The notes below the pieces were generated by a model. The model saw only the letters and a program-made list of their open reading frames with translations, ran no database searches and was not told where the DNA came from. This document shows, piece after piece, positions 8,975 through 60,030 of a stretch of 64,000 nucleotides of DNA. Positions within the stretch are counted from its first letter, which is position 1, and the number at the start of each line of letters is the position of its first letter. Source of the stretch: a virus; IMG/VR virus record IMGVR_UViG_3300035142_000037, positions 1 through 64,000 of that record; one strand, given 5' to 3'. The position numbers were made by a program, and so were the translations under genes.

Positions 8975-9990
8975 GTGATTTAAGACAGATATTTATTCCT
9001 GTTGAGGATTTACCATATAGCGTGAAAGATGTAGCTTTAGCAGATTGTGAAATTAAAATACTTGAAGAGGGAATTGTAACTGGATATGCAGCAACTTTTC
9101 ATAAAAAACCTGATTTGGGCGGGGACGTTATAGAACCAGGGGCTTTTCTTGAAACAATTAAAAATGGTGGTGTACATGGAAATGGTATAAAAGTTTTATG
9201 GCAACATCAGCATATGAAACCTATCGGGATTCCCTTGGAGATGAAAGAGGACAAACGGGGATTATTTGTAAAAACACAATTGGGAATGGAAACGCAGGAC
9301 GGCCACGATGCCTTTATTTGGGCAAAGATGGGCGCTATTGACGGACATTCAATAGGTTATAAAATATATGATTTCAGAAGAAATGATGAAGACAAAAATA
9401 AAGTTAGTAGATATTTAAAAAAACTCGGATTATATGAATATTCATTTGTTACCTTTGCCATGAATCCACGGGCAGGAATAACAAATGTTAAAACAGCTAT
9501 AAAGACAGCAAAAACTGAGAGAGAACTTGAAAGAGCCTTGCGGGATGCAGGGTTGTCAAAATCGGAAGCTCAATACGTGGTTGCGCTTTGCAAACCTAAA
9601 TTGAGACTGGCCGGTGAAGGAAACTTAAAGGATTTGCTGAAAACTATACAAAGTGTTAATGCAGACCTTCTATTAACACATATACTTAATTCTGCGGGAA
9701 GCGGAAAAGAGTATACATGGGAAGAAATGAAACCCTATGCAAATGAGCATTCATGCAGGTTGCAGGATCCAGGGAAATACAAAAAATTTCGTAGACAAAA
9801 TAATGCAGCAACAGTAGATGGAAAACGGATTGATTTTATTTATGGGATTTTAGCAGCTAACAAGTCAGAATTGCAGGCTATCAGATATCCGAAGGATATT
9901 TGGGAGGCTTCATCTGCACGGAGTCATTGCAAATCAAAAGGAGGTAATTTTGAACAGGCAAGCGGGAAGTTTGTTTGTAATTTAGAATAA
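8971..9990 (+). CDS. prohead protease (HK97 family) with C-terminal extension
   Basis: ATGA-coupled start with AAGGAGG SD; GYAATF...DLGGDVIEPGAF N-terminal signature; about 150 aa extra C-terminal region. Confidence 0.8.
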   Translation: MSDLRQIFIPVEDLPYSVKDVALADCEIKILEEGIVTGYAATFHKKPDLGGDVIEPGAFLETIKNGGVHGNGIKVLWQHQHMKPIGIPLEMKEDKRGLFVKTQLGMETQDGHDAFIWAKMGAIDGHSIGYKIYDFRRNDEDKNKVSRYLKKLGLYEYSFVTFAMNPRAGITNVKTAIKTAKTERELERALRDAGLSKSEAQYVVALCKPKLRLAGEGNLKDLLKTIQSVNADLLLTHILNSAGSGKEYTWEEMKPYANEHSCRLQDPGKYKKFRRQNNAATVDGKRIDFIYGILAANKSELQAIRYPKDIWEASSARSHCKSKGGNFEQASGKFVCNLE

Positions 9991-14237: not shown

Positions 14238-14557
14238 AAAATGAAGAAAGACTAATTGATTGTTTAAATAAACTTTTTCAGATAAGACCAATTACATATG
14301 GCGAATGGAATAAGTTAATAAGGTTTCCTGATAAAGAAGATGATTTATTAAATCTTGAAAAGGAATATCCTGAATTAGGTCTTGCAGGGGAAAATAATAA
14401 AAGTATATCTCTCATTTCAATAATGGCTACTATTACAGATTTTTTGTGTAAAAAAAGGTTTGCTGTGATTATTGACAGTGATGAAGAAACAAATATACCA
14501 CTTAAAAATAGAGTTATCAAAGGAGTATCTCTTGTAGATTTTAGGAGCGAAAAGTGA
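14234..14557 (+). CDS. hypothetical protein
   Basis: 107 aa, GGAGGG SD, overlaps both neighbours by 4 nt. Confidence 0.45.
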   Translation: MKNEERLIDCLNKLFQIRPITYGEWNKLIRFPDKEDDLLNLEKEYPELGLAGENNKSISLISIMATITDFLCKKRFAVIIDSDEETNIPLKNRVIKGVSLVDFRSEK

Positions 14558-15231
14558 GAATAGGCTATCTTGCTACATTATTAAGAGCAGGTGAAACAAC
14601 GTTCGGAAACTACGTTGCCGGGGCTGCGGAACTTGAAACTGCTATACGGGGTACTCTTAATTTTGATAGCGCTTTTGTCATTCCTCTTATTGACCGGGCA
14701 GACCGGAATCAATATTCCGGGTCTATCAATCAGGTATTGACAGAACGGTTTGGCATAGTTGTCGCATTAAGAAATGACTCGACAGACAAGGATAGACTTG
14801 GTATAATAGCATATGATAGGCTGCATAATATAAGAAATGAATTGTTTGGGGTTTTTCTTAATAAATCCATTTCGGAAGCAGAATCAGTCATATATTATGT
14901 AGGCGGTTCTTTGAAAGCAATCAATAATGGGTATATATGGTATCAATTTGAATTTGAGTACAAAGCAATATTAGGAGATGAAGGATTGCAAACATTTGAG
15001 GTTGATGACACGGAAGTACCTACAAGCTTTGATACGATATATGCTAATTACATATTAGCCCCGAGTGCTGAATTACCACATACAGGTGATTTGCCGTTGC
15101 CTGATGGATTTCCGGATGTAGCTATACCGGACATGGCACAATGGATTGATTTGACCGATGATCCAAGAGCCGGGGCATTTAGTGGCGCTTTTTCGACAGC
15201 GTTTGATATATATGATGAGGACAGGAGGTAA
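14554..15231 (+). CDS. tail completion/terminator-like protein (Mu gp37 position)
   Basis: 225 aa, GTG start after AGGAG; assignment by gene order only; C-terminal GAFSGAFSTAFD motif. Confidence 0.5.
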   Translation: MRIGYLATLLRAGETTFGNYVAGAAELETAIRGTLNFDSAFVIPLIDRADRNQYSGSINQVLTERFGIVVALRNDSTDKDRLGIIAYDRLHNIRNELFGVFLNKSISEAESVIYYVGGSLKAINNGYIWYQFEFEYKAILGDEGLQTFEVDDTEVPTSFDTIYANYILAPSAELPHTGDLPLPDGFPDVAIPDMAQWIDLTDDPRAGAFSGAFSTAFDIYDEDRR

Positions 15232-32091: not shown

Positions 32092-32111
32092 GTTTTCCTC
32101 CTTACATTGAT

Positions 32112-32715: not shown

Positions 32716-32744
32716 TTGACAAATAAATCATACTGTGTTATATT
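32716..32744 (+). promoter_or_regulatory. promoter TTGACA-17-TATATT
   Basis: Consensus-like boxes preceding the purine-rich RNA. Confidence 0.5.
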
Positions 32745-32750
32745 ATATAA

Positions 32751-33003
32751 TAGAAAGGGTGAGGGAAACAGGGACGGAGGTTAATTGACAAGCAGCCGGG
32801 CGGTCGGAAGTGATCGCATCGGGGTTGAGGGCAGAAACCTGGAGGTGAGTACAGGCGGAAAGCGGGAAACCGAATTAGCCCAGGGCCAACCGAAACGGAG
32901 TGATTGAGAGAAGGAGTAACCAGGGAAACAGGGGCGTGTGACTTGAATACATACACTGCCGTTCAACTCGGCAGGTTTCCAGACGAAAGTCAGAGGAGGA
33001 ATC
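32751..33003 (+). ncRNA. purine-rich structured leader RNA (contains E1)
   Basis: Starts about 7 nt after TTGACA-17-TATATT; stops in all + frames; GNRA-capped hairpins (CGG-GAAA-CCG, GAC-GAAA-GTC); duplicated GGGAAACAGGG. Confidence 0.45.
32924..32980 (+). ncRNA. tRNA-like element E1 (acceptor-like stem + hairpin + T-arm mimic, no D-arm)
   Basis: GGAAAC/GTTTCC closing stem; GTGTG-9nt-CATAC hairpin; CTGCCG-TTCAACT-CGGCAG T-arm-like hairpin; 23 nt before ATG 33004. Confidence 0.4.
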
Positions 33004-33174
33004 ATGGAACTAAAAAGGTACGAAGTGAGGGAAAAATTTTCTCTACAAACTTTAGGCTCCTACGATACGAAGGAAGAAGCCTTTAATAGGCTTGCTTTTT
33101 TCTACGATTCAAAAATGCATAAATGGCATATTGCAATACAAATATATGACCATATAGAAAAAGTTGAAATCTAA
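33004..33174 (+). CDS. hypothetical small protein
   Basis: 56 aa (below track cutoff); AGAGGAGGA SD 5 nt upstream. Confidence 0.5.
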   Translation: MELKRYEVREKFSLQTLGSYDTKEEAFNRLAFFYDSKMHKWHIAIQIYDHIEKVEI

Positions 33175-33232
33175 TCAGTCCAGTGACAGGGGAGCGGGCG
33201 CTCCCCTTACCGGTTCAACTCCGGTTTGATTA
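33172..33232 (+). ncRNA. tRNA-like element E5 (tetraloop hairpin in place of anticodon arm)
   Basis: TAATCA/TGATTA closing stem; GGGGAGC-GGGC-GCTCCCC; ACCGG-TTCAACT-CCGGT; 26 nt before ATG 33259. Confidence 0.4.
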
Positions 33233-33258
33233 CATAGTCGAAAGACAAGGAGGGAATT

Positions 33259-34393: not shown

Positions 34394-34870
34394 ATGAAAG
34401 ATAACAGTATTATCAACAGCCTAAAAAGGCTAGAACGTGTGGGAGACGAAACCTCCCGAGTAACACAAAAGCTGAAAGATGCTTGTGTTAATGTGGCACA
34501 GGAAATTCTTGAAGTAATCAAGGATTCTGGTATTATTGATGTACCTGATTATTATGACGGAATTGTAGAGTATCAATTACCTTGCTATCTTGTTGACGAA
34601 GAAAGATTTACTACGCAAAAAGCGGAAAAAGAGGATACGAACAAAAAACGGCATATCGTAAGATTGTATGTTGATTGCCAGGATAATTGGTGGCTTGCAT
34701 ACAATGATTCCGGGGTCACAAATAGCAAGCTTACAGGTGAACCTTCCAGAGAAGATGCTCTGTCCTTTGCCTGGATTGTCAGCAAAGGATTGGTTGGTGC
34801 CGTGGCTGGCTGGATTGAAGCTGAAAAGAAAAAAGATGAAAAAAGAATAGAAATGCTTGCAATAGAATAA
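34394..34870 (+). CDS. hypothetical protein
   Basis: 158 aa; shares a 25-nt 5'UTR motif with 33859. Confidence 0.6.
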   Translation: MKDNSIINSLKRLERVGDETSRVTQKLKDACVNVAQEILEVIKDSGIIDVPDYYDGIVEYQLPCYLVDEERFTTQKAEKEDTNKKRHIVRLYVDCQDNWWLAYNDSGVTNSKLTGEPSREDALSFAWIVSKGLVGAVAGWIEAEKKKDEKRIEMLAIE

Positions 34871-34993
34871 CAACGGAAGAGCGTCCCTGCGGGGGCGCTC
34901 TCCTCTATGCGGCTGCCTTGCTTGCAGGACAGCTACACGGAGGTAGCTCCGAAAATACCCGGTCCCCAGGGTTAAGGGGAGAGGAGAAGTAGT

Positions 34994-36175: not shown

Positions 36176-36512
36176 GGAGAAAGGACGAAACTTTATAATT
36201 GTCCCTCATTCTGAATGTACAACAATATACTCAGTAACCGGGAATTTCGTGTCTGCGGAAATCAAGGGAAAAACAAGATACAGCTCTTCGGATGGGTCCT
36301 GGGATGGGAAAACGGGTTGGTTTTTTGAAACGATTTTTGGCAAATGCTGTATTTGTAAGAAGACAAAAAAGTTTGATTTCCTTAGATACCTCGGGAATAA
36401 TTATTCTGATGATGAATGCATCTGTCCAGAATGCATCATCCGGATGGGTGATGATTTTTTGACAGCATATAATTCTATTAAGGAGGAAAAGTATGAAACC
36501 GATTATAATTGA
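36162..36512 (+). CDS. hypothetical Cys-rich protein
   Basis: 116 aa; CCICKK ... CICPEC. Confidence 0.5.
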   Translation: MWKIKEKGRNFIIVPHSECTTIYSVTGNFVSAEIKGKTRYSSSDGSWDGKTGWFFETIFGKCCICKKTKKFDFLRYLGNNYSDDECICPECIIRMGDDFLTAYNSIKEEKYETDYN

Positions 36513-37041
36513 AAATCTTAATCAGATCAAATCCGATACTTGCAGAGAACAGGTACAGGAACGCATTGCCAATTATGCACATGATATAATTGTGCGTGAT
36601 TCCTGTGGATATGTATCTGTGTTTTCTGACATGCCTGATGAAACTGGGCGGGGCCAGTGGGTTGCATCAGTATGCGATTACATACCTACCTGGAAAATAA
36701 GGCTGGCTTCTTTTTGTGAAAAGCTATTCCTTACAGGAGGTATAGAAATCCAACAAAAATTGACTCAAAATTCATGGTGCGAATGTCCATATGATGAATG
36801 GGATCCAGCGGTTGACACAGAATATTATTATCTCTGTGTATGGGTTGAAAAAACAGAAAGACGTTATCCATGCCCATTTTTTACGGGTTATGATGAAAAC
36901 TGGGAATGGTGGAAAATAATGCCTTTCATGATATTGCATCCTTTTTTATTTTTCAGGATAAGAAAGGAATGTAAAAAATATTATGAAAAAAGGGAAAAAT
37001 ATTTAATCAAAATCAATTATAATGGAAAAGGAGAAAAATAA
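36493..37041 (+). CDS. hypothetical protein
   Basis: 182 aa, AAGGAGGAA SD. Confidence 0.55.
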   Translation: MKPIIIENLNQIKSDTCREQVQERIANYAHDIIVRDSCGYVSVFSDMPDETGRGQWVASVCDYIPTWKIRLASFCEKLFLTGGIEIQQKLTQNSWCECPYDEWDPAVDTEYYYLCVWVEKTERRYPCPFFTGYDENWEWWKIMPFMILHPFLFFRIRKECKKYYEKREKYLIKINYNGKGEK

Positions 37042-37108
37042 CCAGCAAGGATGCAGGGGCGGGTTATCCCGTCCCTGCCGGGTCAGTACCGGCGGGTTGT
37101 AAAAAGCA

Positions 37109-37600: not shown

Positions 37601-37750
37601 CCCTGGTATTGATGGCGGGACTGTAGCCGGGATTGATCATCCGCTGACGGAAAGACCGTGAAAACGCATACCTATGCAGTCCAGGTCACGGAGGAAGAAA
37701 TTGACAGGAGCATGGAATTGATCATCCATGCCCCGCCATGAATACCAGGA
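37601..37750 (+). ncRNA. structured RNA closed by an 18-bp helix with two UUGAUCA-loop hairpins
   Basis: CCTGGTATTGATGGCGGG (37603-37620) pairs with CCCGCCATGAATACCAGG (37733-37750), one mismatch; internal hairpins GGA-TTGATCA-TCC and CATGGA-ATTGATCA-TCCATG. Confidence 0.5.
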
Positions 37751-37762
37751 CCGGAGGGCGAT

Positions 37763-37981
37763 ATGGATAAAACAGAAGAAAACCGTATATTAAATTCTAT
37801 AAATGGGGATATTCATGTGATTGGAAAAACATCTGGACAATATATATATTATAAAGCATTTGATAATGGAACTTATGAAATATATATACCACCTAAATGT
37901 ACAGTCGTAGCAAAAAATTTAGAATGGATGCAAGGATTTATTGCAGGAATGAAAGAAGTTTTCTTGCTTGAAAAGATATGA
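37763..37981 (+). CDS. hypothetical protein
   Basis: 72 aa, GGAGGG SD. Confidence 0.5.
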   Translation: MDKTEENRILNSINGDIHVIGKTSGQYIYYKAFDNGTYEIYIPPKCTVVAKNLEWMQGFIAGMKEVFLLEKI

Positions 37982-37985: not shown

Positions 37986-38052
37986 GGGGAGCTAAGGATT
38001 GCTACGGAGTTATGCAAGCTCTGTGTGAGGGGTTCAATTCCCCTGCTCTCCA
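37986..38052 (+). ncRNA. tRNA-like element E2 / pseudo-tRNA (truncated D-arm)
   Basis: Acceptor GGGGAGC/GCTCTCC (one G-U), T-arm AGGGG-TTCAATT-CCCCT, anticodon-like arm GGAGT-TATGCAA-GCTCT lacking U33; 67 nt. Confidence 0.45.
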
Positions 38053-38196: not shown

Positions 38197-39123
38197 ATGA
38201 TAAGGAAACCATCAGAACTGAAAGCAAAAAAACTTTTCAAAGGGCTTATTGCCGGGTTACCTGGCATAGGCAAGTCAACACTTGGCGTATCCGCCCCGGC
38301 CGCACTGCTTATAGATGCGGATGATGGATGGGATCGGATACCTGCCCAATTCAGGGTACCGGTAATTCAGCCACAAAGTTATGAGGAAATTTTACAGGAT
38401 TTGAAACCGGATAATTCAGAACTTAAGGATTTTGAAACTCTGGTTTTTGATACCGGGGGGTCCCTGCTTACTTACATGAAATCCTGGGCAATCAAAAAAG
38501 ATATGAAGAACGGACAAAAAGACGGAGTGACATTATCCATGAGAGGATATGGTACAATTGGGCGGGAATTTATGCGGTTAATGGATCACTGTATTTATGC
38601 TTTGCAGAAAAACATTATCGTTATTTTCCATGTGATTGAGAAGTCTGATAATGATGAAACGGTTTACAGGATTGATGCAGAGGGGCAGACAAAAAATAAC
38701 ATCTGGAAAATCATGGATTTTGGTGGGCTTATGTTGAGTTCCAATAACAAGCGGATAATTGGATTTTCTCCGACCGATAAATATTATGCAAAGGGAACCC
38801 ACGGATTGACCGGGACTCATGAGATACCCAATCCTATGAAAACCGGACAAAATACATTCCTTGCTGATCTTTTTATACAGCTTAATGATAATATTGAAAG
38901 CGAATCACAATATGCGGAAGACTATAAAATAGTCATGAATGAAATCCGTTCTAAAATTGCTGGAATAAAAGACATAAAGACAGCAGAAAAAGCATATGAA
39001 GAAATCAAGGACCTGGAGCATGTATTTTCATCCAAACAGGAAGCCAGTACTTTAATGAAAGAAAAACTTGCCAGTATAGGGATGACGTTTAGGAATGGCA
39101 AATTCACAAAGGTGAAAAAATGA
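38197..39123 (+). CDS. AAA_24 / Sak4-like RecA-type ATPase
   Basis: 308 aa; Walker A GLPGIGKST; Walker B-like LVFDT. Confidence 0.8.
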   Translation: MIRKPSELKAKKLFKGLIAGLPGIGKSTLGVSAPAALLIDADDGWDRIPAQFRVPVIQPQSYEEILQDLKPDNSELKDFETLVFDTGGSLLTYMKSWAIKKDMKNGQKDGVTLSMRGYGTIGREFMRLMDHCIYALQKNIIVIFHVIEKSDNDETVYRIDAEGQTKNNIWKIMDFGGLMLSSNNKRIIGFSPTDKYYAKGTHGLTGTHEIPNPMKTGQNTFLADLFIQLNDNIESESQYAEDYKIVMNEIRSKIAGIKDIKTAEKAYEEIKDLEHVFSSKQEASTLMKEKLASIGMTFRNGKFTKVKK

Positions 39124-43473: not shown

Positions 43474-43583
43474 TTGACAATTCTTCCGGTATTTGCTATA
43501 CTGTGATTATCAGGGTGCAGACTGAATGAGCCGTATCACGGCTGGAGGGCTGCACCCCGAAGGCCATGAGACGGCTTTTTTTA
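43474..43583 (+). promoter_or_regulatory. promoter TTGACA-17-TATACT + leader L3 (interleaved helices, U-tract)
   Basis: Helix A 43513-43520/43550-43557; helix B 43529-43534/43571-43576 with competing local partner 43538-43543; U7. Confidence 0.5.
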
Positions 43584-43775: not shown

Positions 43776-43940
43776 ATGAAAGTATGTAATTATACAGACT
43801 GTTGTGATTATTCAGAAGATACAAAAAATCACTGTTTTAGTTTGATAGACATAAAAAAATGCGATCAGCATAAAACTAATCCGATTGTATGGTTAAAAAA
43901 ACTATGGTTTAAGATTAAAATATTTCTTGAATGTTTATAG
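43776..43940 (+). CDS. hypothetical Cys-rich small protein
   Basis: 54 aa, GGGAGG SD. Confidence 0.45.
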   Translation: MKVCNYTDCCDYSEDTKNHCFSLIDIKKCDQHKTNPIVWLKKLWFKIKIFLECL

Positions 43941-43950
43941 GGAGGTAATC

Positions 43951-44097
43951 ATGAATATAAGGGAAAAACCGCTTAAGCTTAGATGGTATACGGTAGGAAA
44001 AAATACCATACAGGCTGGGAGTCCTGGAGAAGCCAGACGGATAATCCAGGATATGGAGCGGTATAGAAATAAGACAGGTACGCAACCGTGTCGGTGA
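43951..44097 (+). CDS. hypothetical small protein
   Basis: 48 aa, GGGAGG SD. Confidence 0.45.
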   Translation: MNIREKPLKLRWYTVGKNTIQAGSPGEARRIIQDMERYRNKTGTQPCR

Positions 44098-44185
44098 CCG
44101 GGTGCCTGACAATATTTTTGTTACTTTATGTTTTTAGTAGTAGTATTTATTGAGAAGGCGTCCCGCTAAAGAGGCCGGGACGCTG

Positions 44186-44258
44186 CGGGGTGTCGCCAAG
44201 GTGGTAAGGCTAAGGGTTACATACCTGACATGCAGGGGTTCAATTCCCCTTGCCCCGA
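44186..44258 (+). ncRNA. tRNA-like element E3 / pseudo-tRNA (Gln-type D-arm, defective anticodon stem)
   Basis: Acceptor CGGGGTG/TGCCCCG, D-arm GCC-AAGGTGGTAA-GGC, T-arm identical to E2, anticodon stem only 3 bp. Confidence 0.45.
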
Positions 44259-44432
44259 CGCTCAACAGCCGGGATATAAGTAAGGATCTTGCCTATAAGC
44301 AAGATCACCTGCTGAACCAGGCGAGACAGGAATGCCGGCTTAATGAATCTTGGGAAATATTGCCGAGAGGCAATCGTGAGGCAAGCACTAGCCGTCCAAA
44401 CTGATCATGCGACGTAAAACTTGCCAGATCGT

Positions 44433-44605
44433 ACAGCGGTAATCTTCTGTAGGGAAGAAACGCCATTGACATCTAAATAGAGGTTTACCACCCTCGGCGT
44501 TTGAAAAGGTAGATGATAGGGTGATTCCTACAGGTAACGTGGTCCTATCGGTCGTGTGCCGAAAAAAAGCACAATCAATCACGGGTTCAAATCCCGGCTG
44601 CTGTA
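44433..44605 (+). ncRNA. expanded tRNA-like module (acceptor, D-arm and T-arm with about 110-nt insert)
   Basis: ACAGCGG/CTGCTGT acceptor pairing, TCTT-8nt-AAGA D-arm, ACGGG-TTCAAAT-CCCGG T-arm, ACGCC/GGCGT stem enclosing 31 nt. Confidence 0.3.
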
Positions 44606-44699
44606 TAGTTATTATCATCTTGCTATGACGAGATGACGGCGGCCCGTGTCGGCTCTCGGGATAATCCTTGATAGGGATGACAGCCGGAAAGACGGTGTA

Positions 44700-44767
44700 C
44701 AGTAGAGGCTATAGAGTGCCTGGGGCATGCTGATTGTCAATGTCCGGTTCGAATCCGGGTCTACTGT
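44700..44767 (+). ncRNA. tRNA-like element E4 / pseudo-tRNA
   Basis: Perfect 7-bp acceptor CAGTAGA/TCTACTG, T-arm TCCGG-TTCGAAT-CCGGG, loop ATGCTGA (U33, R37) on a weak stem; ATG 44769 follows. Confidence 0.45.
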
Positions 44768-44768
44768 A

Positions 44769-44912
44769 ATGAAGAATCCAGAATGGTGCACATTTGGGGA
44801 TACATGTCCCTACGTACTGAAAAATCAACCCTGTATTACTGCGTGCTGGTTTCACCGGGATGAGGTTGAAAAACGCAGAATCAACCGGGAAACCTGGGAG
44901 GAAAGAAAGTGA
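44769..44912 (+). CDS. hypothetical Cys-rich small protein
   Basis: 47 aa; ATG 2 nt after the 3' end of a tRNA-like element; no SD. Confidence 0.4.
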   Translation: MKNPEWCTFGDTCPYVLKNQPCITACWFHRDEVEKRRINRETWEERK

Positions 44913-46368: not shown

Positions 46369-46496
46369 TTGACACACCTGCAAAATTATGATAAATTAAG
46401 ACAGGGCAAAATACAGTAGTATAAAGAAGGCATAATTTAGCCCGGGGGACTACTGCCCGGCACCTGCCCGGTGATTGCTAAGTTATGCCTTTTTTA
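46369..46496 (+). promoter_or_regulatory. promoter TTGACA-17-TAAATT + leader L4 (interleaved helices, U-tract)
   Basis: Helix A 46414-46420/46449-46455; helix B 46429-46441/46477-46489 (13 bp, one G-U); U6. Confidence 0.6.
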
Positions 46497-46511
46497 TTGA
46501 AAGGGGAGTTT

Positions 46512-46726: not shown

Positions 46727-46861
46727 ATGGATAAAGAACAATTATATAACAGACTAGATGAAGATGAAGAATTAACAGATGAGGAGAAAAGAGAAATATA
46801 TTTTACTGAAATAGCATTTGCAGAAGAAGAGGAGCGTTGGAAGGAAAATAATGGCCCATGA
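46727..46861 (+). CDS. hypothetical acidic small protein
   Basis: 44 aa; start region is the second copy of the 37-nt repeat. Confidence 0.4.
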   Translation: MDKEQLYNRLDEDEELTDEEKREIYFTEIAFAEEEERWKENNGP

Positions 46862-47693
46862 AAAGAAAGGATATGGAATAATTCCTACCTGGATAATGAA
46901 AGCAAATTTATCTCATAAGGCAAAATTGATACTTATGTGTTTAGCATGTTATGCAGGTGATAAAGATTATTGTTATCCTTCTATTTCTACTATTTGCTCT
47001 GATTTGAAAATAGGCAGAACCACTGCTATTAATATTTTAAAAAAAGCAGAAGAAAAAAAGTTTATAAAAATAGAAAAATTATATCCTGGAAATCCGTTTA
47101 AAAAGCACAACAAATATACGTTATTATTTAAAAACGGTAGTTCTATATGCAGGACCACCGGAAGTCCCAATGCAGGACCACCGGAAGTCCCAATGCAGGA
47201 CCATGAAAAACATGAAAATCCAGTCCCAATGCAGGACTCTCGAAGTCCCAATGCAGGACTCTCGAAGTCCCAATGCAGGACGGAGAATATTAACATTAAT
47301 ATAATAACAGAAAAGGATTTGCAAAAAACTAGAGAGAATGATCTTAAAAAGCTTAAACAGATTACATTAGAGATTTTTAAAAAAATCTCTCCTGAACAAT
47401 TTAAGACAAAAAACGATTTTGCAAGGGAAGGAAGTGCAATAAAGAAATTCTGCGAAGATGCAGTTGAAAGATTCAAAGATTTCAATGAACAAAAAAAATG
47501 GGTTGAAGACATAACGGATATTTACAGAAAAATCTGTTTTTCAGAGATTAAGCATAAATGGCTAAATGATTCAGTTTTTATCCCATCCCGGATGAGATCG
47601 AAAGGAATTTGGCCGGAAGTAGTTAATGCACTTAAAGAAAAACGTCCTAAAAACAAAAAAATGCCTGATTATTCCAGTTATAAGGAGGATTAA
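46851..47693 (+). CDS. replication initiator / replisome organizer with internal iterons
   Basis: N-terminal winged-helix-like YGIIP..I......AKLI...L..YAG....C.PS...I...L.....T....L; five 15-bp iterons inside the gene (lambda O-like layout). Confidence 0.7.
   Translation: MAHEKKGYGIIPTWIMKANLSHKAKLILMCLACYAGDKDYCYPSISTICSDLKIGRTTAINILKKAEEKKFIKIEKLYPGNPFKKHNKYTLLFKNGSSICRTTGSPNAGPPEVPMQDHEKHENPVPMQDSRSPNAGLSKSQCRTENININIITEKDLQKTRENDLKKLKQITLEIFKKISPEQFKTKNDFAREGSAIKKFCEDAVERFKDFNEQKKWVEDITDIYRKICFSEIKHKWLNDSVFIPSRMRSKGIWPEVVNALKEKRPKNKKMPDYSSYKED
47146..47281. repeat. iteron array (5 x GTCCCAATGCAGGAC + partial), candidate origin
   Basis: Copies at 47164, 47187, 47223, 47245, 47267; each has GTCC...GGAC dyad; AT-rich stretch follows at 47282-47310. 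Confidence 0.8.
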
Positions 47694-53888: not shown

Positions 53889-53889
53889 T

Positions 53890-53963
53890 GCCTGGGTAGC
53901 CCAACAGGAAGAGGCAACTGGTTTAAGCCCAGTAAAGTGGAAGTTCAAATCTTCTCCCAGGCA
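53890..53963 (+). tRNA. tRNA, anticodon UAA (Leu by anticodon) but class I (5-nt variable loop)
   Basis: Acceptor GCCTGGG/CCCAGGC, anticodon stem ACTGG/CCAGT, loop TTTAAGC, T-arm GGAAG-TTCAAAT-CTTCT, discriminator A. Confidence 0.75.
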
Positions 53964-53964
53964 A

Positions 53965-54038
53965 GCCGGAGTAGCCCAATTGGAAGAGGCGCTTGATTTA
54001 GGATCAAGAAGTTGTGAGTTCGAATCTCACCTTCGGTA
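53965..54038 (+). tRNA. tRNA, anticodon UAG (Leu by anticodon) but class I (5-nt variable loop)
   Basis: Acceptor GCCGGAG/CTTCGGT (two G-U pairs), anticodon stem CTTGA/TCAAG, loop TTTAGGA, T-arm GTGAG-TTCGAAT-CTCAC. Confidence 0.7.
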
Positions 54039-54040
54039 TA

Positions 54041-54126
54041 GGGAGTATATACCGTAAGTAGTAGCGGGGCTGACTGTAGATCAGTTGAGCTTAGTCTCTC
54101 GGGTGGTGCGACTCCATCTACTCCCA
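54041..54126 (+). tRNA. class II tRNA, anticodon GUA (Tyr-like), atypical T-loop
   Basis: Acceptor GGGAGTA/TACTCCC, anticodon stem GCTGA/TCAGT, loop CTGTAGA, long variable arm, T-loop TGCGACT, 4 nt between acceptor and D stem. Confidence 0.6.
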
Positions 54127-54140: not shown

Positions 54141-54902
54141 ATGCGTTATTTACCAATAATCCTTGCACGTATGAATAGTACCCGATTACCCGGTAAAGTA
54201 ATGATGGACTTATGCGGGAAACCGGTATTAGAGCGGATAATTGAGAGAATAAGGAGAGTATCACAGATTGAGCATATATGTGTTGCTACAACTTTAAACA
54301 ATTGTGATAAAAAAATAATTGAGTTTTGCGTAGAAAAAGGAATTATATGGTTTGCTGGTAGCGAAAAAGATGTATTGCATAGATTTGTTACGGCTTCGCA
54401 AAATATAGAATCAGGAGGATATGAACATGATTACATCATAGATATCACTGCCGATTGTCCCCTTGCCTGCCCGGAAATAATTGGTAACCTTATTTATGCA
54501 TGTGAACGATACCAGCCTGATTATGCAAGTAATATAGGTGTGCGTTCTTTTTGTGATGGCTTTGATGTCCAGATTGTAAAAAAAGAAGTGCTGTACGATA
54601 TCTATGACAAAGTACAGCCTTACCATAGATGTCATAGTGCTTGGAATGTACTTGCCTATGCACAGGGAATCAAGGTTTATAATCTCACCCCGGCAAAACA
54701 AGAATACTGGATGCCGGAGGTAGGCTTAACTCTTGACACAGCTATGGATTTGGTAGTTATCAGGCAGATTTATGAACAATTTGAGCATCGGGATTATGTT
54801 TTCAACCATTACGATATATGTGAATTACTTCTTACACGTCCTGAAATACTGGATGTTAATAAGAACGTAAAGCGAAAAACGCCCGGAAAGGATGTGTCAT
54901 GA
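54141..54902 (+). CDS. NulO cytidylyltransferase-like protein (SpsF/PseF/NeuA family)
   Basis: 253 aa; N-terminal IILARMNSTRLPGKV...L.GKP motif; AAGGAGG SD 5 nt after tRNA. Confidence 0.8.
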   Translation: MRYLPIILARMNSTRLPGKVMMDLCGKPVLERIIERIRRVSQIEHICVATTLNNCDKKIIEFCVEKGIIWFAGSEKDVLHRFVTASQNIESGGYEHDYIIDITADCPLACPEIIGNLIYACERYQPDYASNIGVRSFCDGFDVQIVKKEVLYDIYDKVQPYHRCHSAWNVLAYAQGIKVYNLTPAKQEYWMPEVGLTLDTAMDLVVIRQIYEQFEHRDYVFNHYDICELLLTRPEILDVNKNVKRKTPGKDVS

Positions 54903-54981
54903 TAGCATGTATTGCAATAATATTATCTATAATAGCGATTTTGATTAATATACTCAGGTGTATTTTATAGCAGGAAGGGAA

Positions 54982-55947
54982 ATGGCAATAATGTATAATG
55001 TACTTATTATAGGATGTGGTTCAATCGGGGCACTTAAACCAGACAAGTATGATTCCCCGGATACTGAAAATATACTTACACATTGTCATGCGGTGAAGAA
55101 ACATGATAAGTTTAGACTATGGGGGGTAATGGATAGCGATTATGATAAAATGATGAAAGCTGCACGAAAATGGGGTTGTATGGGTTTTCCTGGATTCAAA
55201 GCTTTAGGGAAAATAGATGACGAAATAGATATTGCAGTAATAGCAACACCTATCGAAACACATTATCGCATTTACAGGAAGATAAAAGACCGGAATCTCA
55301 AGGCTATTATTATAGAAAAACCTTGCGGTATTGATTATGATATGTGTAATTTAATGAAAGGCGAAAGAGTGGTAGTCAATTATACCAGGCGGTTTCTTCC
55401 GAGATATAAAAATTTCAAGAAAGAATTTGAAAGCGGGGCATGTAAAATATTATCCTGTGTTGTGTATTATGTTCGGGGGCTTTTAAGAGATGGGTGCCAT
55501 GCTATTGATCTTTGTAGGTATTTTTTCGGGGAGATATTGGATGTCAAGAAGTTAAGCACTGGCCCGGACGATTATTCCCCGGATGATACAACCGATTGTA
55601 TATGGATGCAAGCTGAAAGATGCCCGAATATTGTTATAATCCCTGGAGATGGAAGAGTCGCAGACTGTTTTGATTTCGAGATTATGACAGATAAAGGAAT
55701 GATTTGCCTTTACGAACATGGTGCAAAGCTTTTTATAAGAGGAATTGAAAAGGAGAGAGTTTACGGTGATTATGATTCTTTAACCGGCAAGCAGATAAAG
55801 TATAATTTCGATATGGGCTTTAGCAGGCAGGCTTTATTATCTTTATATGATAATGTAGCCGGAGTTATTGAAGGCAAAGAAAAACCAATATGTACGGTGG
55901 AAGATGCACTGATAGTGCATGAAATTATAGAGAAAGTGAGGAATTAA
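54982..55947 (+). CDS. Gfo/Idh/MocA-family oxidoreductase
   Basis: N-terminal Rossmann VLIIGCGSIG; ATG at 54982 after AGGAAGGGA. Confidence 0.7.
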   Translation: MAIMYNVLIIGCGSIGALKPDKYDSPDTENILTHCHAVKKHDKFRLWGVMDSDYDKMMKAARKWGCMGFPGFKALGKIDDEIDIAVIATPIETHYRIYRKIKDRNLKAIIIEKPCGIDYDMCNLMKGERVVVNYTRRFLPRYKNFKKEFESGACKILSCVVYYVRGLLRDGCHAIDLCRYFFGEILDVKKLSTGPDDYSPDDTTDCIWMQAERCPNIVIIPGDGRVADCFDFEIMTDKGMICLYEHGAKLFIRGIEKERVYGDYDSLTGKQIKYNFDMGFSRQALLSLYDNVAGVIEGKEKPICTVEDALIVHEIIEKVRN

Positions 55948-57296
55948 TGCTATTTGATAACATAGAAAACCATGGGAAAAATAACCGGATAGATTACATG
56001 CCGGATCAGTATTATGGTGGATACACAAAGGAAGCGGCACATAGAATTGGTGATAAAATAGGAAAAATGACAGGCTATAATATTTATTCATACTATCGGG
56101 GTAATGGAAGTAAACATTTTTGGGGTGGCCTGGAAGTTCAGAAACTGGAAAAAGCTTTTGAGAAGTATCTTGGGGATGGGGTGAAATGTCTTGCTGTTAA
56201 TTCCTGTACATCTGCTCTTATAATAGCATGTGGAGCGGTAGGGATTGAGCCGGGTGATGAGGTAATTGTGAGTCCTTGGTCAATGTCCTGCTCTGCAACT
56301 GCACCGATGCATTACGGAGGAATCCCGGTATTTACGGATATTGAAGATCAGTATTTTTGTCTGGATCCGGATGATATTGAGAGAAAGATTACAGAAAAAA
56401 CAAAGGCAATTATAGCCGTGGACCTTTTCGGGCAGCCTGCGGATTATGAAACAATTTATGAAAAAATTGGAAATAAAAAGATAGATAGAATTATGAAAAT
56501 AGTAGATCAAAATAATATATATATTATTGAAGATGCAGCCCAGGCAATAGGCTCATTTAATTTGAGAAGAGGAAAAGAAGCCGGGACATTTGGGCATATA
56601 GGTTGTTTTTCTTTTACCCAGGGTAAACATATGACAGCCGGTGAGGGGGGTATGATTGTTACAAGGAATAAGGAACTTTATGCGAAATGTGCTTTATTAC
56701 GGAATCATGCAGAGGCGGTAATGAATGATCTTGATAGCGAATTCGAAAACGATACAATACATCCTGTCGGACAATATTCTAATCTTATAGGCTTTAATAT
56801 GCGTATGACAGAAATCCAAGCAGTTATACTACAAGAACAGTTGAAATATTTAGATGATATCGTGAAATTGCGAAAAAGAAATGTGCGATTGTTAATGAAA
56901 AATATGCCATCAACAATTTCATTATACCCAACCAGGAAAGGATATTCACACAGCTTTTATGTCATGCCCTTAAAATATACCGGGAAAGATATAAAACGAT
57001 TTGTAGACCTGGTAAAAAGAAATCTTAAACCAGAACGAAATCGAGTTGACAGGGGGGTCCCTATAGGAGCGGGATACATCAAGCCGCTTTATAAGTTTCC
57101 TTGTTTTCAAGGAACTAATATGCACTGGGCAATCAAGGAGCGGGATTATTCAAGGGTAAGTTGTCCGAACGCAGAACGTTTAAATGGTGAATTGATTATA
57201 TGCTTGCTTCATGGGCTGGATTTATCTGAACAAGATATTAAAGATATTTGCTATGCTTTTCAGAAAGCTGACGAAATTGTAAACGGAGGTTTATGA
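55947..57296 (+). CDS. DegT/DnrJ/EryC1-type PLP aminotransferase (PseC/LegC/SpsC-like)
   Basis: 449 aa; ..IEDAAQA.GS.. and SF...K..T.GEGG motifs; about 60 aa N-terminal extension. Confidence 0.85.
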   Translation: MLFDNIENHGKNNRIDYMPDQYYGGYTKEAAHRIGDKIGKMTGYNIYSYYRGNGSKHFWGGLEVQKLEKAFEKYLGDGVKCLAVNSCTSALIIACGAVGIEPGDEVIVSPWSMSCSATAPMHYGGIPVFTDIEDQYFCLDPDDIERKITEKTKAIIAVDLFGQPADYETIYEKIGNKKIDRIMKIVDQNNIYIIEDAAQAIGSFNLRRGKEAGTFGHIGCFSFTQGKHMTAGEGGMIVTRNKELYAKCALLRNHAEAVMNDLDSEFENDTIHPVGQYSNLIGFNMRMTEIQAVILQEQLKYLDDIVKLRKRNVRLLMKNMPSTISLYPTRKGYSHSFYVMPLKYTGKDIKRFVDLVKRNLKPERNRVDRGVPIGAGYIKPLYKFPCFQGTNMHWAIKERDYSRVSCPNAERLNGELIICLLHGLDLSEQDIKDICYAFQKADEIVNGGL

Positions 57297-57535
57297 TGCA
57301 TAATACATGGAAAGATAATTATGGAGAAATATGGGGCTTATTTTTTTGTGAAGGATTTGAAGAACATTGGCATAGATATGTAATAGAAAAATCTATGGAA
57401 TATGCAATAAAAGCATATGAAAAAGAAATGGAAAGACCCTGTAAAAAAATAGAATTTATATGTGTACTTGGTGATATTTTAGATCCTAATAAAACTTTTA
57501 ATAAACTGATAACAGAAAGTATTGAAAATTGGTAA
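57293..57535 (+). CDS. hypothetical protein
   Basis: 80 aa, ATGA overlap. Confidence 0.45.
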   Translation: MMHNTWKDNYGEIWGLFFCEGFEEHWHRYVIEKSMEYAIKAYEKEMERPCKKIEFICVLGDILDPNKTFNKLITESIENW

Positions 57536-57541
57536 TGACTA

Positions 57542-57655
57542 TTGACATAATAAAATATATATGTATAATGGTATTATCTCTTTGTAAGGGGTTATGGATG
57601 TACAGCCTAACCCCATCCATAATTACAGAGAGAAAGCTATTACAAGGAGAGAAAT
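57542..57655 (+). promoter_or_regulatory. internal promoter TTGACA-16-TATAAT + short structured leader
   Basis: GGGG+TTATGGAT ... CCCC+ATCCATAA arranged in the same interleaved order, no U-tract. Confidence 0.4.
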
Positions 57656-58480
57656 ATGGTAAAGTTTATATGTGATGTAGGATCTTGTCATAATCAATCT
57701 ATAAGCCGGGCTATTGAATTGATAGACCTTGCAAAAGCCTGTAAGGCATGGGCAATAAAATTACAATACTTCCAGGTAGAAAAGCTATATCATCCATCTG
57801 CTGATATAGTCTTTGAAGCCTTAAAAAAAATGGAGTTACCTCGTGAGTGGATACCAGAACTTTGTGAGTATGCAAAAAAGATAGGACTAGCAGTTGGTGT
57901 AACTTTCTTTCATACCGGGATAATGAACCAGTTTGCAGATTGCCGTTTTGATTTTATTAAGATAAGTTCATTTGACACTGGGAGGGATGATTTTATCCGG
58001 GAAGCTTTGATATACACTGACAAACGGCTCATCATAAGCACTGGGTTAATGACTATACCAGAAATAACCGTACTGAATGAGAAAATAGCCACATGGGAAA
58101 GTCAGCTTGCAATACCGCATAAAGAGTTGACTTTTTTGCATTGTGTTTCTGAATATCCGGCCAAAGATGCTTATATGGGATTTATGCTGAAAATGGTAAA
58201 AGAAGGCTGGAATGTAGGATATTCGGATCATACTGTTGATCATGTGAATATTATGAGAGCTGCTATTTTAGGCGCTGAATATATTGAGGTGCATATAGAT
58301 TTAGATGATAAATTAGGGATGGAAAATATAGGACATTGCTGGACTAAGAAAAAATTAAAAACGACGATAACAGCAATTAATTCTATGCAGTTGAATGACA
58401 AAGTCATCACAGATAAAATGCTTAAAAACAAGGCTGATCCGGGTGACGGGATGCGGCCGTTAAGGAGGTTTAGAAAATGA
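57656..58480 (+). CDS. NeuB/PseI/SpsE-like nonulosonic acid synthase (no C-terminal SAF domain)
   Basis: 274 aa; N-terminal I.DVGS.HN.S...A.ELI..A...A.AIKLQ pattern; shorter than typical NeuB. Confidence 0.7.
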   Translation: MVKFICDVGSCHNQSISRAIELIDLAKACKAWAIKLQYFQVEKLYHPSADIVFEALKKMELPREWIPELCEYAKKIGLAVGVTFFHTGIMNQFADCRFDFIKISSFDTGRDDFIREALIYTDKRLIISTGLMTIPEITVLNEKIATWESQLAIPHKELTFLHCVSEYPAKDAYMGFMLKMVKEGWNVGYSDHTVDHVNIMRAAILGAEYIEVHIDLDDKLGMENIGHCWTKKKLKTTITAINSMQLNDKVITDKMLKNKADPGDGMRPLRRFRK

Positions 58481-58641
58481 CAGAGTTAGGATTCTTAATA
58501 GGTATATCACCAATATTAATAGGATTTATGATGTTATTAATTTATATTTATTGTGAATTTTACAGACCTAAATATAGAAAGTTTAGGATAAAAAATGAAG
58601 ATGGTACATATGAGGATATTGAAATAAATATAAATGAATAA
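58477..58641 (+). CDS. small membrane protein
   Basis: 54 aa, ATGA-coupled, one TM helix. Confidence 0.4.
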   Translation: MTELGFLIGISPILIGFMMLLIYIYCEFYRPKYRKFRIKNEDGTYEDIEININE

Positions 58642-58650
58642 GGAAATATA

Positions 58651-59634
58651 ATGATTGATGGCAAAGAATTTCTTATAACCGGAGGTTCCGGGACACTCGG
58701 AAAAGAGCTGGTATATCAGATTAAGAAAGATTACAATCCCCGGGGAATACGTATATATTCCAGGGATGAATACAAACATCTGCTTGCCAAGGAATGGTTT
58801 TTGAGCCGGGGGATTAATCTTGAAAAAATAGAATTTATAATTGGGGATATAGCAGATTATACCCAGTTAAAACGGGTGATGTCCGGGGTTGATATAGTAA
58901 TTCATACCGCAGCACTAAAACAAGTACTTGCTTGTGAGGATAATCCAATAGAAGCGATACGGGTAAATATCATAGGCGCTGAAAATGTTGTAATGGCAGC
59001 ATGGGAAAATCAGATTGAACAAGTGATAAATATTGCAACTGATAAAGGGGTATACCCGGTAAACCTGTATGGAATGGGAAAAGCTATTGCAGAAAAGTTG
59101 ATGGTTTTCGGTGCAGTTTATACTGGGGGCCGGAAACCTTTTTTTAAATCTTGTCGTTATGGAAATGTAATCGGTTCTCGGGGTTCAGTAGTTCCCGTAT
59201 GGAAAAGGCAAGTGAAGGATACTGGAAAGATAACGATTACAAACAGAGAAATGACACGGTTTTTCATTCCCCTTGAAAAAGTGGCAAAGTTTATATTGGA
59301 AAGACTTCAGGAAAATGAAACCGGAAAAATATATGTGCCTAAAATGAAGTCAATACAAATGGGTGAGTTTGCAGACATGCTTTTTCCTGGGGTGCCACAG
59401 CAGGAAATAGGGATACGGCCAGGGGAAAAAATACATGAGATTATTATCACTGGGGAAGAAAACATATTCACGCAGAAAGTCAACAAGCATTATGTAATAG
59501 ATGCATATCGAATGAAAATAGACCGCTTTCCCTCGAAGGATTGGGAATCAGGACTTACCAGTTATGGTCTTGATTCTTATAATAACCCTGAAAGATGGGG
59601 GGAAGAGATTTTGAAGTATTGCAAAGGAGAATAA
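58651..59634 (+). CDS. UDP-sugar 4,6-dehydratase (PseB/CapD/FlaA1-like SDR)
   Basis: 327 aa; ITGGSGTLGKEL Rossmann motif and Y...K catalytic pair (YGMGKAIAEK). Confidence 0.85.
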   Translation: MIDGKEFLITGGSGTLGKELVYQIKKDYNPRGIRIYSRDEYKHLLAKEWFLSRGINLEKIEFIIGDIADYTQLKRVMSGVDIVIHTAALKQVLACEDNPIEAIRVNIIGAENVVMAAWENQIEQVINIATDKGVYPVNLYGMGKAIAEKLMVFGAVYTGGRKPFFKSCRYGNVIGSRGSVVPVWKRQVKDTGKITITNREMTRFFIPLEKVAKFILERLQENETGKIYVPKMKSIQMGEFADMLFPGVPQQEIGIRPGEKIHEIIITGEENIFTQKVNKHYVIDAYRMKIDRFPSKDWESGLTSYGLDSYNNPERWGEEILKYCKGE

Positions 59635-59769
59635 GATGGAATATAGAAATGATCTGGAAGAATTACAAAAAGAGATAGATGCTTTAAAGAAAGAAATACA
59701 ATTCATGTGGAAATATATAGAAGGAGATCAATCAGCAATAGGAGCAAGAAAGATATCTAAAATTTTGGA
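59623..59769 (+). repeat. direct repeat copy 2 (about 147 nt)
   Basis: Near-identical to 49235-49381. Confidence 0.85.
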
Positions 59770-59779
59770 TGGAAAATAA
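59636..59779 (+). CDS. small coiled-coil protein, copy 2 of a duplicated gene
   Basis: 47 aa; 4 mismatches in about 133 nt versus 49248-49391. Confidence 0.5.
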   Translation: MEYRNDLEELQKEIDALKKEIQFMWKYIEGDQSAIGARKISKILDGK

Positions 59780-59802
59780 ATAAAGTATTGTGAGGTGAAG
59801 GA

Positions 59803-60030
59803 ATGAGAATTGAAAAGGATAAATTGATTTTTGAAAGTGGTAAAATAGTACAGCCATACCAAGGAATTGTAGGAATCAATAATAGATTTGATATAACAGA
59901 GGGATATGATGGATATATAAGGGACACTCAGCTTGAATCTGAAACTGAATTATCGAAAGAAGAGTTAATAGAATTAGCTGATTATATGATAGGTTTATGG
60001 AAAAGATTTAAAGATGAGGTGAAAAAATGA
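59803..60030 (+). CDS. hypothetical protein
   Basis: 75 aa, GAGGTGAAGG SD. Confidence 0.45.
   Translation: MRIEKDKLIFESGKIVQPYQGIVGINNRFDITEGYDGYIRDTQLESETELSKEELIELADYMIGLWKRFKDEVKK

Follow-up and report, generated by a model that had tools for sequence, protein, structure and literature searches.

Structures that resemble transfer RNA (tRNA) are textbook cut marks in mitochondrial transcripts and are known in that role for a few nuclear and bacterial RNAs. Animal mitochondrial tRNAs and mascRNA, the 3' end of MALAT1, are cut marks for RNase P and RNase Z, and the t-elements of plant mitochondria were reportedly described by Hanic-Joyce in 1990 as tRNA-like processing signals. The cut made by RNase Z lies after the discriminator base, which is unpaired and directly follows the acceptor helix on its 3' side; CCA blocks the enzyme, and tRNAs that lack CCA are its type of substrate. 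The subject here is a set of tRNA-like elements, E1 to E6, in a stretch of 64,000 nucleotides (positions 1 to 64,000 of IMG/VR virus record IMGVR_UViG_3300035142_000037; hereafter the window), which is the nearly complete genome of an uncultivated myovirus-like phage. The best reading, put forward tentatively because the E5 type is an imperfect mimic, is that they are sense-strand, intercistronic tRNA mimics which serve as processing or stability punctuation via RNase Z and/or RNase P.

The plant-mitochondrial t-elements were found with the motif GGTTCRANYCC and are demonstrated substrates of RNase P and RNase Z (PMC1920247). Similarly to the t-elements, those of the phage have a non-canonical cloverleaf with a GGTTCRANYCC T arm and an acceptor stem, lie on the sense strand beside protein genes and are not adaptors. 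By contrast, the ends of the messenger RNAs (mRNAs) and of the t-elements themselves have been mapped and their cleavage shown, whereas cutting of the phage elements is a prediction; these belong to a phage genome with bacterial enzymes and include a repeated kind, the E5 type, that mostly has no T-loop and overlaps stop codons. E4, which directly abuts an AUG, is like the leaderless mRNAs of mitochondria, although mitochondria use real tRNAs, and mascRNA is one nuclear element only; against the mascRNA model (threshold 42.5), E3 reaches 15.5 bits.

T4-type phages carry PeSL cassettes, which combine a terminator-like stem-loop with an early promoter and are repeated between small early open reading frames (ORFs) (PMC2839356, PMC4122927). 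The elements of the window phage are likewise short, conserved intergenic cassettes with a stem-loop between differing small early ORFs and are likely recombination linkers. Unlike PeSLs, however, they include a four-helix junction, and a promoter scan lists no site at 32924-33003, 33172-33258 or 37038-37108; as they contain no promoter, the cassettes are not PeSLs. The repetitive extragenic palindromic (REP) sequences and bacterial interspersed mosaic elements (BIME) of enterobacterial operons are GC-rich structures that follow stop codons and are thought to protect the upstream mRNA and to affect termination close to the stop. The phage cassettes share with REP and BIME a GC-rich structure just after a stop codon inside an operon; however, each REP is a single imperfect hairpin, of which chromosomes have hundreds of copies, and there is no sequence similarity to the phage cloverleaf.

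No phage description with repeated tRNA-shaped, non-decoding modules between early cistrons was found in the literature. The E5-type cloverleaf and the giant tRNA-like E6 are apparently two undescribed structured RNA motifs with covariation support. If the elements are processing signals, they would be a new, compact phage route to set mRNA ends and relative expression via host tRNA enzymes, and would offer a simple rule for interpreting 'pseudo-tRNA' calls in phage genomes.

The tRNA-like elements as a set

The elements and the hairpins that accompany them are:

32924 to 32980, + strand: E1, an acceptor/T-arm minihelix; the minimum-free-energy fold is this structure (z = -2.2)
32982 to 33003, + strand: mini hairpin GAC-GAAA-GTC, then Shine-Dalgarno (SD) sequence GAGGAGG, directly 3' of E1 (read from the sequence)
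33172 to 33232, + strand: E5, cloverleaf cassette, one of eight copies (z = -3.9; nhmmer E = 1.8e-11)
33237 to 33258, + strand: mini hairpin GTC-GAAA-GAC plus AAGGAGGG, after E5; the same module as after E1
37038 to 37100, + strand: second E5-type cassette (z = -3.4; nhmmer E = 9.6e-10)
37986 to 38052, + strand: E2, tRNA-like element (z = -2.6; match to the detector described below; not called by ARAGORN or Rfam)
44158 to 44183, + strand: conserved hairpin GCGTCCCG-CTAAAGAGGC-CGGGACGC, preceded by TAGTAGTAGTA, at the head of a tRNA-like cluster
44186 to 44258, + strand: E3, near-canonical tRNA-like gene (ARAGORN tRNA-??? (taca); Rfam tRNA 33.2 bits against a threshold of 29; z = -0.85)
44433 to 44604, + strand: E6, tRNA-derived RNA of about 170 nt (covariation with three relatives)
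44699 to 44768, + strand: E4, tRNA-like element (z = -1.7; detector match)

E1 to E5 had been described in a first-pass annotation made from the letters of the window. Sequence and folds bear out their coordinates, closing stems and T-arm hairpins, together with the T arm that is identical in E2 and E3, the loop TTCAACT of E1 and E5, the hairpin with a GGGC tetraloop and the distances to ATG 33004, 33259, 44769 and 54141. The list itself was incomplete: it had missed the second E5-type copy (37038-37100) and the ~170-nt E6 (44433-44604).

Chance is rejected as an explanation because two separate counts exceed those of shuffled sequence. The motif GGTTCRANYCC occurs five times in the window against 0.30 expected, with none of 100 shuffles reaching five, and all five matches are on the + strand in non-coding intergenic DNA, where they pick out E2 to E6; E1 carries the variant CGTTCAACTCG. 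A detector for a T arm that is directly followed by a strand pairing over 6-7 bp with an upstream segment finds 15 window sites against 1.8 +/- 1.5 in shuffles, and its GC-rich intergenic sites are exactly E1 to E5 plus the true tRNAs. The looser pattern GKTCRANYC alone (15 against 9.3 expected) is not significant. For E1, E2, E4 and E5, the minimum-free-energy fold given by ViennaRNA is the acceptor-plus-T-arm fold.

Comparisons were drawn from metagenomic phage contigs obtained by protein look-ups. These include L001, which is identical to the window; L002, a sediment contig from ENA whose Sak4 is 81% identical to that of the window; L003 and L005, with Sak4 identities of 71% and 67%; L138, a third related phage; and L145, a 2-kb fragment of a relative. 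Other searches gave no relative of use: none was found in INPHARED (DNA and protein search), IMG/VR searched by protein and with four DNA patterns returned chance matches only, two patterns run against GTDB genomes gave no useful relative, and the JGI metagenome contigs yielded two short contigs, both without elements. L136, a contig with a homologue of the ORF that follows E5, has an ordinary promoter before this ORF and not a cassette. The window and L002 have few proteins in common, and the small ORFs adjoining E1 and E5 have no tblastn match between them, while the non-coding modules themselves match by blastn; as judged from these alignments, the non-coding modules of this lineage are better conserved than the ORFs between them. 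L138 has no canonical tRNA in 20 kb yet carries E1-, E5- and E6-type elements, which are thus not merely the debris of a tRNA island.

The first-pass annotation had treated its five elements as one family. Comparison with the relatives instead gives at least three unrelated kinds, namely the E5-type cassette, the E1 minihelix and the tRNA-derived RNAs E2, E3, E4 and E6. A hidden Markov model (HMM) of the E5 type matches E5-type copies only and none of E1 to E4, which rejects a single homologous family. The acceptor and T stems measure 6 + 6 bp in E1, 7 + 5 in E2 and E3, 8 + 5 in E4 and 5-7 + 5 in the window E5; the T-loops of the window elements are TTCAACT, TTCAATT and TTCGAAT, in T arms that conform to the UUCRANY loop and G53-C61 pair. 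A canonical anticodon arm (5-bp stem, 7-nt loop, U33 and 3-base anticodon) is present in none of E1 to E5. Its position holds an 8-bp stem with a GGGC tetraloop in E5, a 9-bp stem with a 5-nt loop in E2, an irregular stem with a 3-nt loop in E4, an 8-nt loop and an A.G mismatch in E3, and a 5-bp stem with a 9-nt loop in E1, where the arm is lost in L002. Having no usable anticodon arm, the elements are not adaptors, and all are non-decoding. The earlier statement that all lack a normal D-arm or anticodon arm therefore stands for the anticodon arm but not for the D arm of E3, which is normal.

Among E1 to E6, E3 alone is called by ARAGORN and Rfam. E1, E2, E4, E5 and E6 receive no tRNA call from ARAGORN or Rfam, even at E <= 10 on short stretches; apart from E3, the only match is that of E5 to the Rfam tRNA-Sec model (19.7 bits, threshold 47). 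At the gathering threshold, Rfam 15 returns tRNA matches only in the window, L002, L138, L145 and L003, and a loose structural descriptor search gave mostly AT-rich chance matches and was discarded. Compared with tRNA (RF00005), E3 and the L002 gene at 14525-14595 pass the threshold and E2, E4 and E6 share the acceptor/T-arm half; unlike in tRNA, the anticodon arm is absent, of the wrong size (loops of 6, 8 or 17 nt) or replaced by other hairpins. CCA is encoded in no element and in none of the phage's three true tRNAs.

Conserved structures of the individual elements

The E5-type cassette is about 60 nt long and occurs in eight copies, two in the window, five in L002 and one in L138; an HMM built from these copies finds exactly those eight and nothing else. 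All eight fold as a four-helix junction that consists of P1 (4-7 bp), a 3-bp mini hairpin (variants GTC-CAGT-GAC, GCA-AGGA-TGC and GGC-AGGTA-GCC), a GC-rich P2 that differs in sequence in almost every copy, and P3 of the form CCGG-N7-CCGG. In E5, P1 includes the TAA stop of ORF 33004-33174 and is followed by GTC-CAGT-GAC, a P2 with the GGGC loop and the P3 hairpin CCGG-TTCAACT-CCGG. In the copy at 37038-37100, P1 (ATAACC/GGTTGT) and the TAA stop of ORF 36493-37041 overlap; GCA-AGGA-TGC forms the mini hairpin, and P3 has no T-loop but the loop GTCAGTA.

In a structural alignment of the E5 type, fitted to the fold by hand from three genomes, all 161 of 161 cells are standard pairs and 10 of the 23 pairs have changed on both sides, with changes across all four helices. 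None of 500 shuffles is as good, and pairing falls to 40-60% when the partners are slid. G.U pairs occur in the + sense only, so that the fold is that of the mRNA strand. The most strongly conserved parts are the sequence blocks CCAGTCCAGTGAC and GGGGTTGTATA, and P2 is always oriented with G in the 5' strand and C in the 3' strand, its CCCCTT strand being complementary to AAGGAGG.

P1 starts on or beside the stop codon of the upstream ORF in all eight E5-type copies, and the next start, where one exists, lies 25-50 nt downstream. The copy at 37038-37100 has no called gene for about 330 nt downstream and then a new promoter; thus, the constant feature is a position 3' of a cistron, not 5' of a start. 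The elements had been said to be placed 5' of start codons, a rule that proves weak: the next credible start is about 510 nt away for E3 and about 145 nt away for E2, and in a genome dense with same-strand ORFs any intergenic element precedes a start. For the E5 type, a start on the upstream stop codon is the more exact rule.

In E1, a 6-bp P1 (GGAAAC/GTTTCC) stacks on a 6-bp T stem (CTGCCG/CGGCAG) with the loop TTCAACT, and a 26-nt insert separates the two 5' strands. Homologues are present in L002 (3923-3981) and L138 (131-179). In the order window, L002 and L138, and with pairs read by eye (MAFFT mis-registered the T stem), P1 is GGAAAC/GTTTCC, GGACAT/ATGTCC and GGAAAT/GTTTCC, the T stem is CTGCCG/CGGCAG, CTGGGAG/CTCCTGG and CGGGGG/CCCCCG, and the loop is TTCAACT, TTCAACT and TTCAATT, with a coaxial stack of 12-13 bp throughout. 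Since the loop TTCAAYT is constant while the stems change, it is the sequence of the loop, and not that of the stems, that is conserved in E1. The insert, 18-26 nt long, is similar in the window and L002, and its hairpin is not kept. A 3-bp GNRA hairpin lies 1-5 nt 3' of E1, of E5 and of several L002 copies, directly before the SD sequence, and its stem covaries (GAC/GTC, GTC/GAC and, in L002, GCC/GGC).

E2 begins 4 nt past the stop codon of ORF 37763-37981. It combines a 7-bp acceptor with a 5-bp T arm (GGGGTTCAATTCCCC), carries an A at the discriminator position and has a central 9-bp hairpin with a 5-nt loop, but no D stem. The same site holds an intact tRNA-Ile(UAU) (68 bits) in L002 and a truncated tRNA-Leu-like gene without an anticodon arm in L003, and is empty in four other relatives.

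The remaining elements lie in a non-coding stretch of 830 nt (43940-44769) that opens with the hairpin at 44158-44183, followed by E3, E6 and E4. This hairpin keeps the loop YNAAAGAGGC while its stem covaries in four phages (the window, L002, L138 and L145) and, together with TAGTAGTAGTA, always stands just 5' of the tRNA-like cluster (window 44135-44183, L002 14366-14408, L138 ~9377-9475 and L145 ~1393-1500). E3 has a normal acceptor, D arm and T arm, with a mismatched anticodon stem and an 8-nt loop. At its position, L002 has two tRNA-like genes: (i) 14410-14521, with a class-II D arm and a 17-nt 'anticodon' loop, of which L145 carries a 173-nt version (1512-1684) and L138 only a remnant of the 5' strand, and (ii) 14525-14595, which at 49 bits is above the Rfam threshold and has a 6-nt anticodon loop. 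A class-II (Leu-like) D arm is found in the L003 element and in the first genes of L002 and L145.

In E6, TA comes after the closing stem (ACAGCGG/CTGCTGT), as it does at positions 8-9 of a tRNA; further parts are a D-like hairpin whose loop contains GG, a long arm with branches, a hairpin-bearing extra region and the T arm CGGG-TTCAAAT-CCCG. Homologues occur in L002 (14643-14802), L138 (9534-9695) and L145 (1694-1819). The closing stem covaries across the four phages (ACAGCGG, ATGGCAG, ACAGCAG and ATAGCAG, with 3' strands that match in each case), compensatory changes have replaced the D-like hairpin (CTTC-TGTAGG-GAAG versus GCAT-ATGG-ATGC), and the long arm covaries as well (ACGCC/GGCGT versus CCGG/CCGG). 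E4 combines an 8-bp acceptor and a D-like stem of 3 bp with an irregular central hairpin and the T arm CCGG-TTCGAAT-CCGG; it gives no Rfam tRNA match at E <= 10 and has no homologue in the relatives. One A separates E4 from ATG 44769, so that the AUG of ORF 44769-44912 comes 1 nt after the element. This ORF, which encodes 47 Cys-rich residues and has no SD, is probably real, as suggested by its small homologue P0249 (57 aa, 48% identity).

The compensatory changes indicate that structure is under selection in the E5 type, E1 and E6. Conservation in related phages had been set beforehand as a refutation test for the tRNA-like elements; position and structure are kept, with compensatory changes. 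In the surviving tRNA-like genes, the anticodon arm is not intact, whereas the acceptor arm, the T arm and usually also the D arm are.

A proposed role as processing punctuation, and the alternatives

A divergent control region near 32100 is followed by a strong promoter at 32716, and the promoter scan of the window lists further good promoters at 37288, 43474 and 46369.

32716 to 32744, + strand: sigma-70-type early promoter for the E1/E5 transcript, TTGACA-17-TATATT with TG (11 of 12 matches)

The elements would be cis-acting RNA modules in long, sigma-70-driven early or middle transcripts of a small phage clade. They appear to copy the half of tRNA that is read by maturation enzymes, namely an acceptor-type helix plus T arm of about 12 bp without CCA; RNase P and RNase Z, like the CCA-adding enzyme and the enzymes that modify the T arm, recognise this common half. 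The proposal takes transcription to run through the elements and predicts that RNase Z or RNase P recognises them and that stability and translation are affected. Host RNase Z would cut just past the base that follows the closing helix, and RNase P may also cut at the 5' edge of the free-standing E2, E3, E4 and E6. Such cuts would split the polycistronic RNA in a way that leaves the upstream cistron with its stop codon and a structured 3' end, while the downstream RNA would begin 1-5 nt before the GNRA hairpin and SD in the case of E1 and E5, and exactly at AUG 44769 in the case of E4. A hairpin plus SD at the start of an mRNA protects 5' ends. Of the earlier suggestion of tRNA-like punctuation by RNase P or RNase Z, the conserved sense-strand structure, the acceptor/T geometry, the non-decoding nature, the lack of CCA and the location between cistrons are upheld. 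RNase P cleavage at the 5' edge of the E5 type is not: it would remove the upstream stop, so only cutting on the 3' side, of the RNase Z type, is sensible there. The cassettes are probably also homology patches for the shuffling of early genes, because the same ~60-nt units flank unrelated small ORFs in different phages. The fullest version of the proposal would have the clade punctuate its early polycistronic mRNAs in the manner of mitochondria, with non-decoding tRNA mimics that recruit RNase Z/P, and would embrace the stop-overlapping 60-nt cassette, a leaderless E4 mRNA, cassettes as shuffling joints, and the E5 type and E6 as new RNA families; taken as a whole, it is rather unlikely.

Several observations weigh against reading the elements as processing signals. 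The T-loop TTCAACT of P3 is present in two of the eight E5-type copies, the other six having GTCAGCA, GCCAGCA, GTCAGTA or GTCAATA; the T-loop seen in E5 is thus not a conserved part of its type, whose remaining copies carry GYCAGYA or GTCAATA instead. Most L002 copies have a 4-bp P1 with 1-5 unpaired nt between P3 and P1, which leaves an interrupted stack of 9-11 bp and makes them poor mimics; Rfam matched nothing tRNA-like in the L002 copies. In E3, E4 and most L002 copies the fold z-score is unremarkable, three of four phages have the T arm of E6 while it is not recognisable in L138, and the absence of an SD after E4 is not rare (44 of 114 ORFs have no strict SD by a crude count). The sequences of E2, E3 and E4 are not conserved in relatives, where these sites gain and lose tRNA or tRNA-like genes, and BLAST of the three against phage records gives marginal matches only; the loci turn over quickly, given that the relatives' counterparts differ or are missing. 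The comparative set is also small, with three to four genomes overall.

Some of these points fit better with REP-like 3' stabilisers, translational insulators on the stop codon or binding sites for a phage protein, none of which would involve tRNA enzymes. In such a role, the cassette might block 3' exonucleases, cause terminating ribosomes to stall or be released, or hide the next SD behind the C-rich 3' strand of P2, and the resemblance of E1 and E5 to tRNA would be incidental or vestigial. The invariable start of the E5 type on or next to an upstream stop, the presence of a T-loop in so few copies, and the conservation of CCAGTCCAGTGAC, GGGGTTGTATA and a P2 strand complementary to AAGGAGG all favour this possibility, as do other repeated cassettes in untranslated regions (UTRs) of the same phages that have obvious anti-SD/SD pairing (34870-34990). 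However, the E1 loop TTCAAYT is kept in three of three phages with changing stems, which points to T-loop recognition; a four-helix cloverleaf is more elaborate than a 3' stabiliser requires; and E2, E3, E4 and E6 are clearly tRNA-derived. A role of this kind is possible but doubtful. That E2, E3, E4 and perhaps E6 are instead decaying or indel-damaged phage tRNA genes without present function is unlikely, even though decay explains E2, E3 and E4 well: the E2 site holds a tRNA-Ile(UAU) in L002, an armless Leu-like gene in L003 and nothing in four relatives; the anticodon loops of 8 nt in E3 and 6 nt in L002 14525-14595 are a signature of single-base indels; E4 has no homologue; and, of the first tRNA-like gene, L138 retains just the 5' strand. 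The search would, moreover, miss elements whose T arms have decayed, an ascertainment bias that favours decay. Decay would leave E1 and E5 unexplained, and it does not account for damage that is always confined to the anticodon arm, with perfect acceptor, T and (where present) D arms, or for the compensatory changes by which E6 keeps its closing stem, D-like hairpin and long arm in four phages.

Phage tRNA genes counter tRNA-targeting defences, and the first-pass annotation had raised the idea of decoys. The elements could accordingly be sponges for readers of the acceptor or T arm (acceptor-end toxins, the CCA-adding enzyme, T-arm modification enzymes or EF-Tu) or other anti-defence RNAs, and several non-decoding tRNA-shaped RNAs are indeed clustered behind a promoter region of their own (promoter at 43474; RNAs at 44158-44768). 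As bait for anticodon nucleases they find no support, since no element has a proper anticodon arm; furthermore, the neighbourhood of the elements yielded neither a tRNA-related enzyme nor a defence-related gene, and the E5 type sits between cistrons instead of forming a gene of its own. A decoy function is very unlikely. Small ribozymes usually occur in intercistronic phage DNA, and the E5 type, a small, conserved multi-helix junction with a few invariant unpaired bases, is repeated between phage cistrons, as a new self-cleaving ribozyme that cuts the operon RNA between cistrons would be. With very few conserved unpaired positions and no Rfam ribozyme match even at E <= 10, such a ribozyme is hardly credible.

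Other candidates were tried and rejected. A stop-codon read-through signal is not compatible with a downstream frame that closes after three codons in the window copy, intrinsic terminators are excluded because the elements have no U tract and no terminator is listed at their sites, and the helices are too short for RNase III sites. Integron attC sites differ in their ends (RYYYAAC ... GTTRRRY core sites against (A/G)ACC ... GGTT(G/A)TAT in the cassette) and in having one long imperfect hairpin, folded from the bottom strand, instead of a four-helix junction; the G.T pairs of the cassette favour the top (mRNA) strand, and no integrase was seen in the region. E6 is not an intron-bearing tRNA, its insert being too short for a group I intron and its expansions being spread over several arms. 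The known large phage non-coding RNAs, tmRNA, Y-RNA-like RNAs and known ribozymes gave no Rfam match.

Other features of the window

Among the genes of the window are those for a large terminase, a major head protein, a tail sheath and a tape-measure protein; the + strand carries nearly all of the genes, and the G+C content is about 37%. The region 32200-53800 contains small early ORFs, a Sak4-like recombinase (38197-39123) and a replication module, and is followed by the canonical tRNAs.

53889 to 54126, + strand: three tRNA genes, Leu-UAA, Leu-UAG and Tyr-GUA (ARAGORN, Rfam and sequence)

The tRNA block ends 14 nt before ATG 54141. The T arms of the three canonical tRNAs (AGTTCAAATCT, AGTTCGAATCT and GGTGCGACTCC) are less canonical than those of the non-decoding elements, and the tRNA-Tyr is below the Rfam threshold though called by ARAGORN. 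Directly downstream, at 54141-63449, lies a nonulosonic-acid gene set (pseudaminic or legionaminic type) that includes a cytidylyltransferase, a GFO/IDH/MocA oxidoreductase, an aminotransferase, NeuB, a PseB-like dehydratase and an 886-aa MptE-like plus TPR (Maf-like) protein.

Further non-coding units accompany the early genes. The strongest early promoter is followed by a purine-rich leader of about 170 nt (32755-32920) that is 79% identical to L002 1770-1933 amid unrelated ORFs; it has no Rfam match and may serve in antitermination or as a regulatory leader RNA. A second repeated 5'-UTR cassette (window 34870-34990; L002 5219-5312, 5768-5851 and 7023-7080) consists of a variable GC hairpin followed by CTCCTCTATGCGGCTGC..GCTACACGGAGGTAGCTCCG..GGGGAGAGGAG, with evident anti-SD/SD pairing; its sole Rfam match, to the ylbH leader, is weak (19.6 bits, threshold 50). 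A unit of about 140 nt (window 37603-37748; L002 8600-8741, 9327-9470 and 9682-9807; L142 ~4860-5000) is bounded by the inverted repeat CTGGTATTGA...TGAATACCAG, has an inner GATCA-centred hairpin and is repeated in several related phages, adjoining tRNA or tRNA-like sites. In each of the stretches 46369-46497 and 43474-43580, a strong promoter is followed by a short conserved hairpin RNA that ends in a T run (46403-46497 matches L002 17413-17510 and L138 11278-11392; 43509-43580 matches L138 9065-9138), and these are likely small RNAs or attenuators. In L145, positions 1925-2001 are a Nextera/Illumina adapter (CTGTCTCTTATACACATCTCCGAGCCCACGAGAC...) followed by poly-A at the end of the JGI contig, an assembly artefact and not phage DNA. 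On the minus strand of the window, at 47226-47299, two tandem direct copies of TGGGACTTCGAGAGTCCTGCATTGG lie inside the HTH_36 replication-initiator-like ORF 46818-47693 and may be iteron-like origin repeats.

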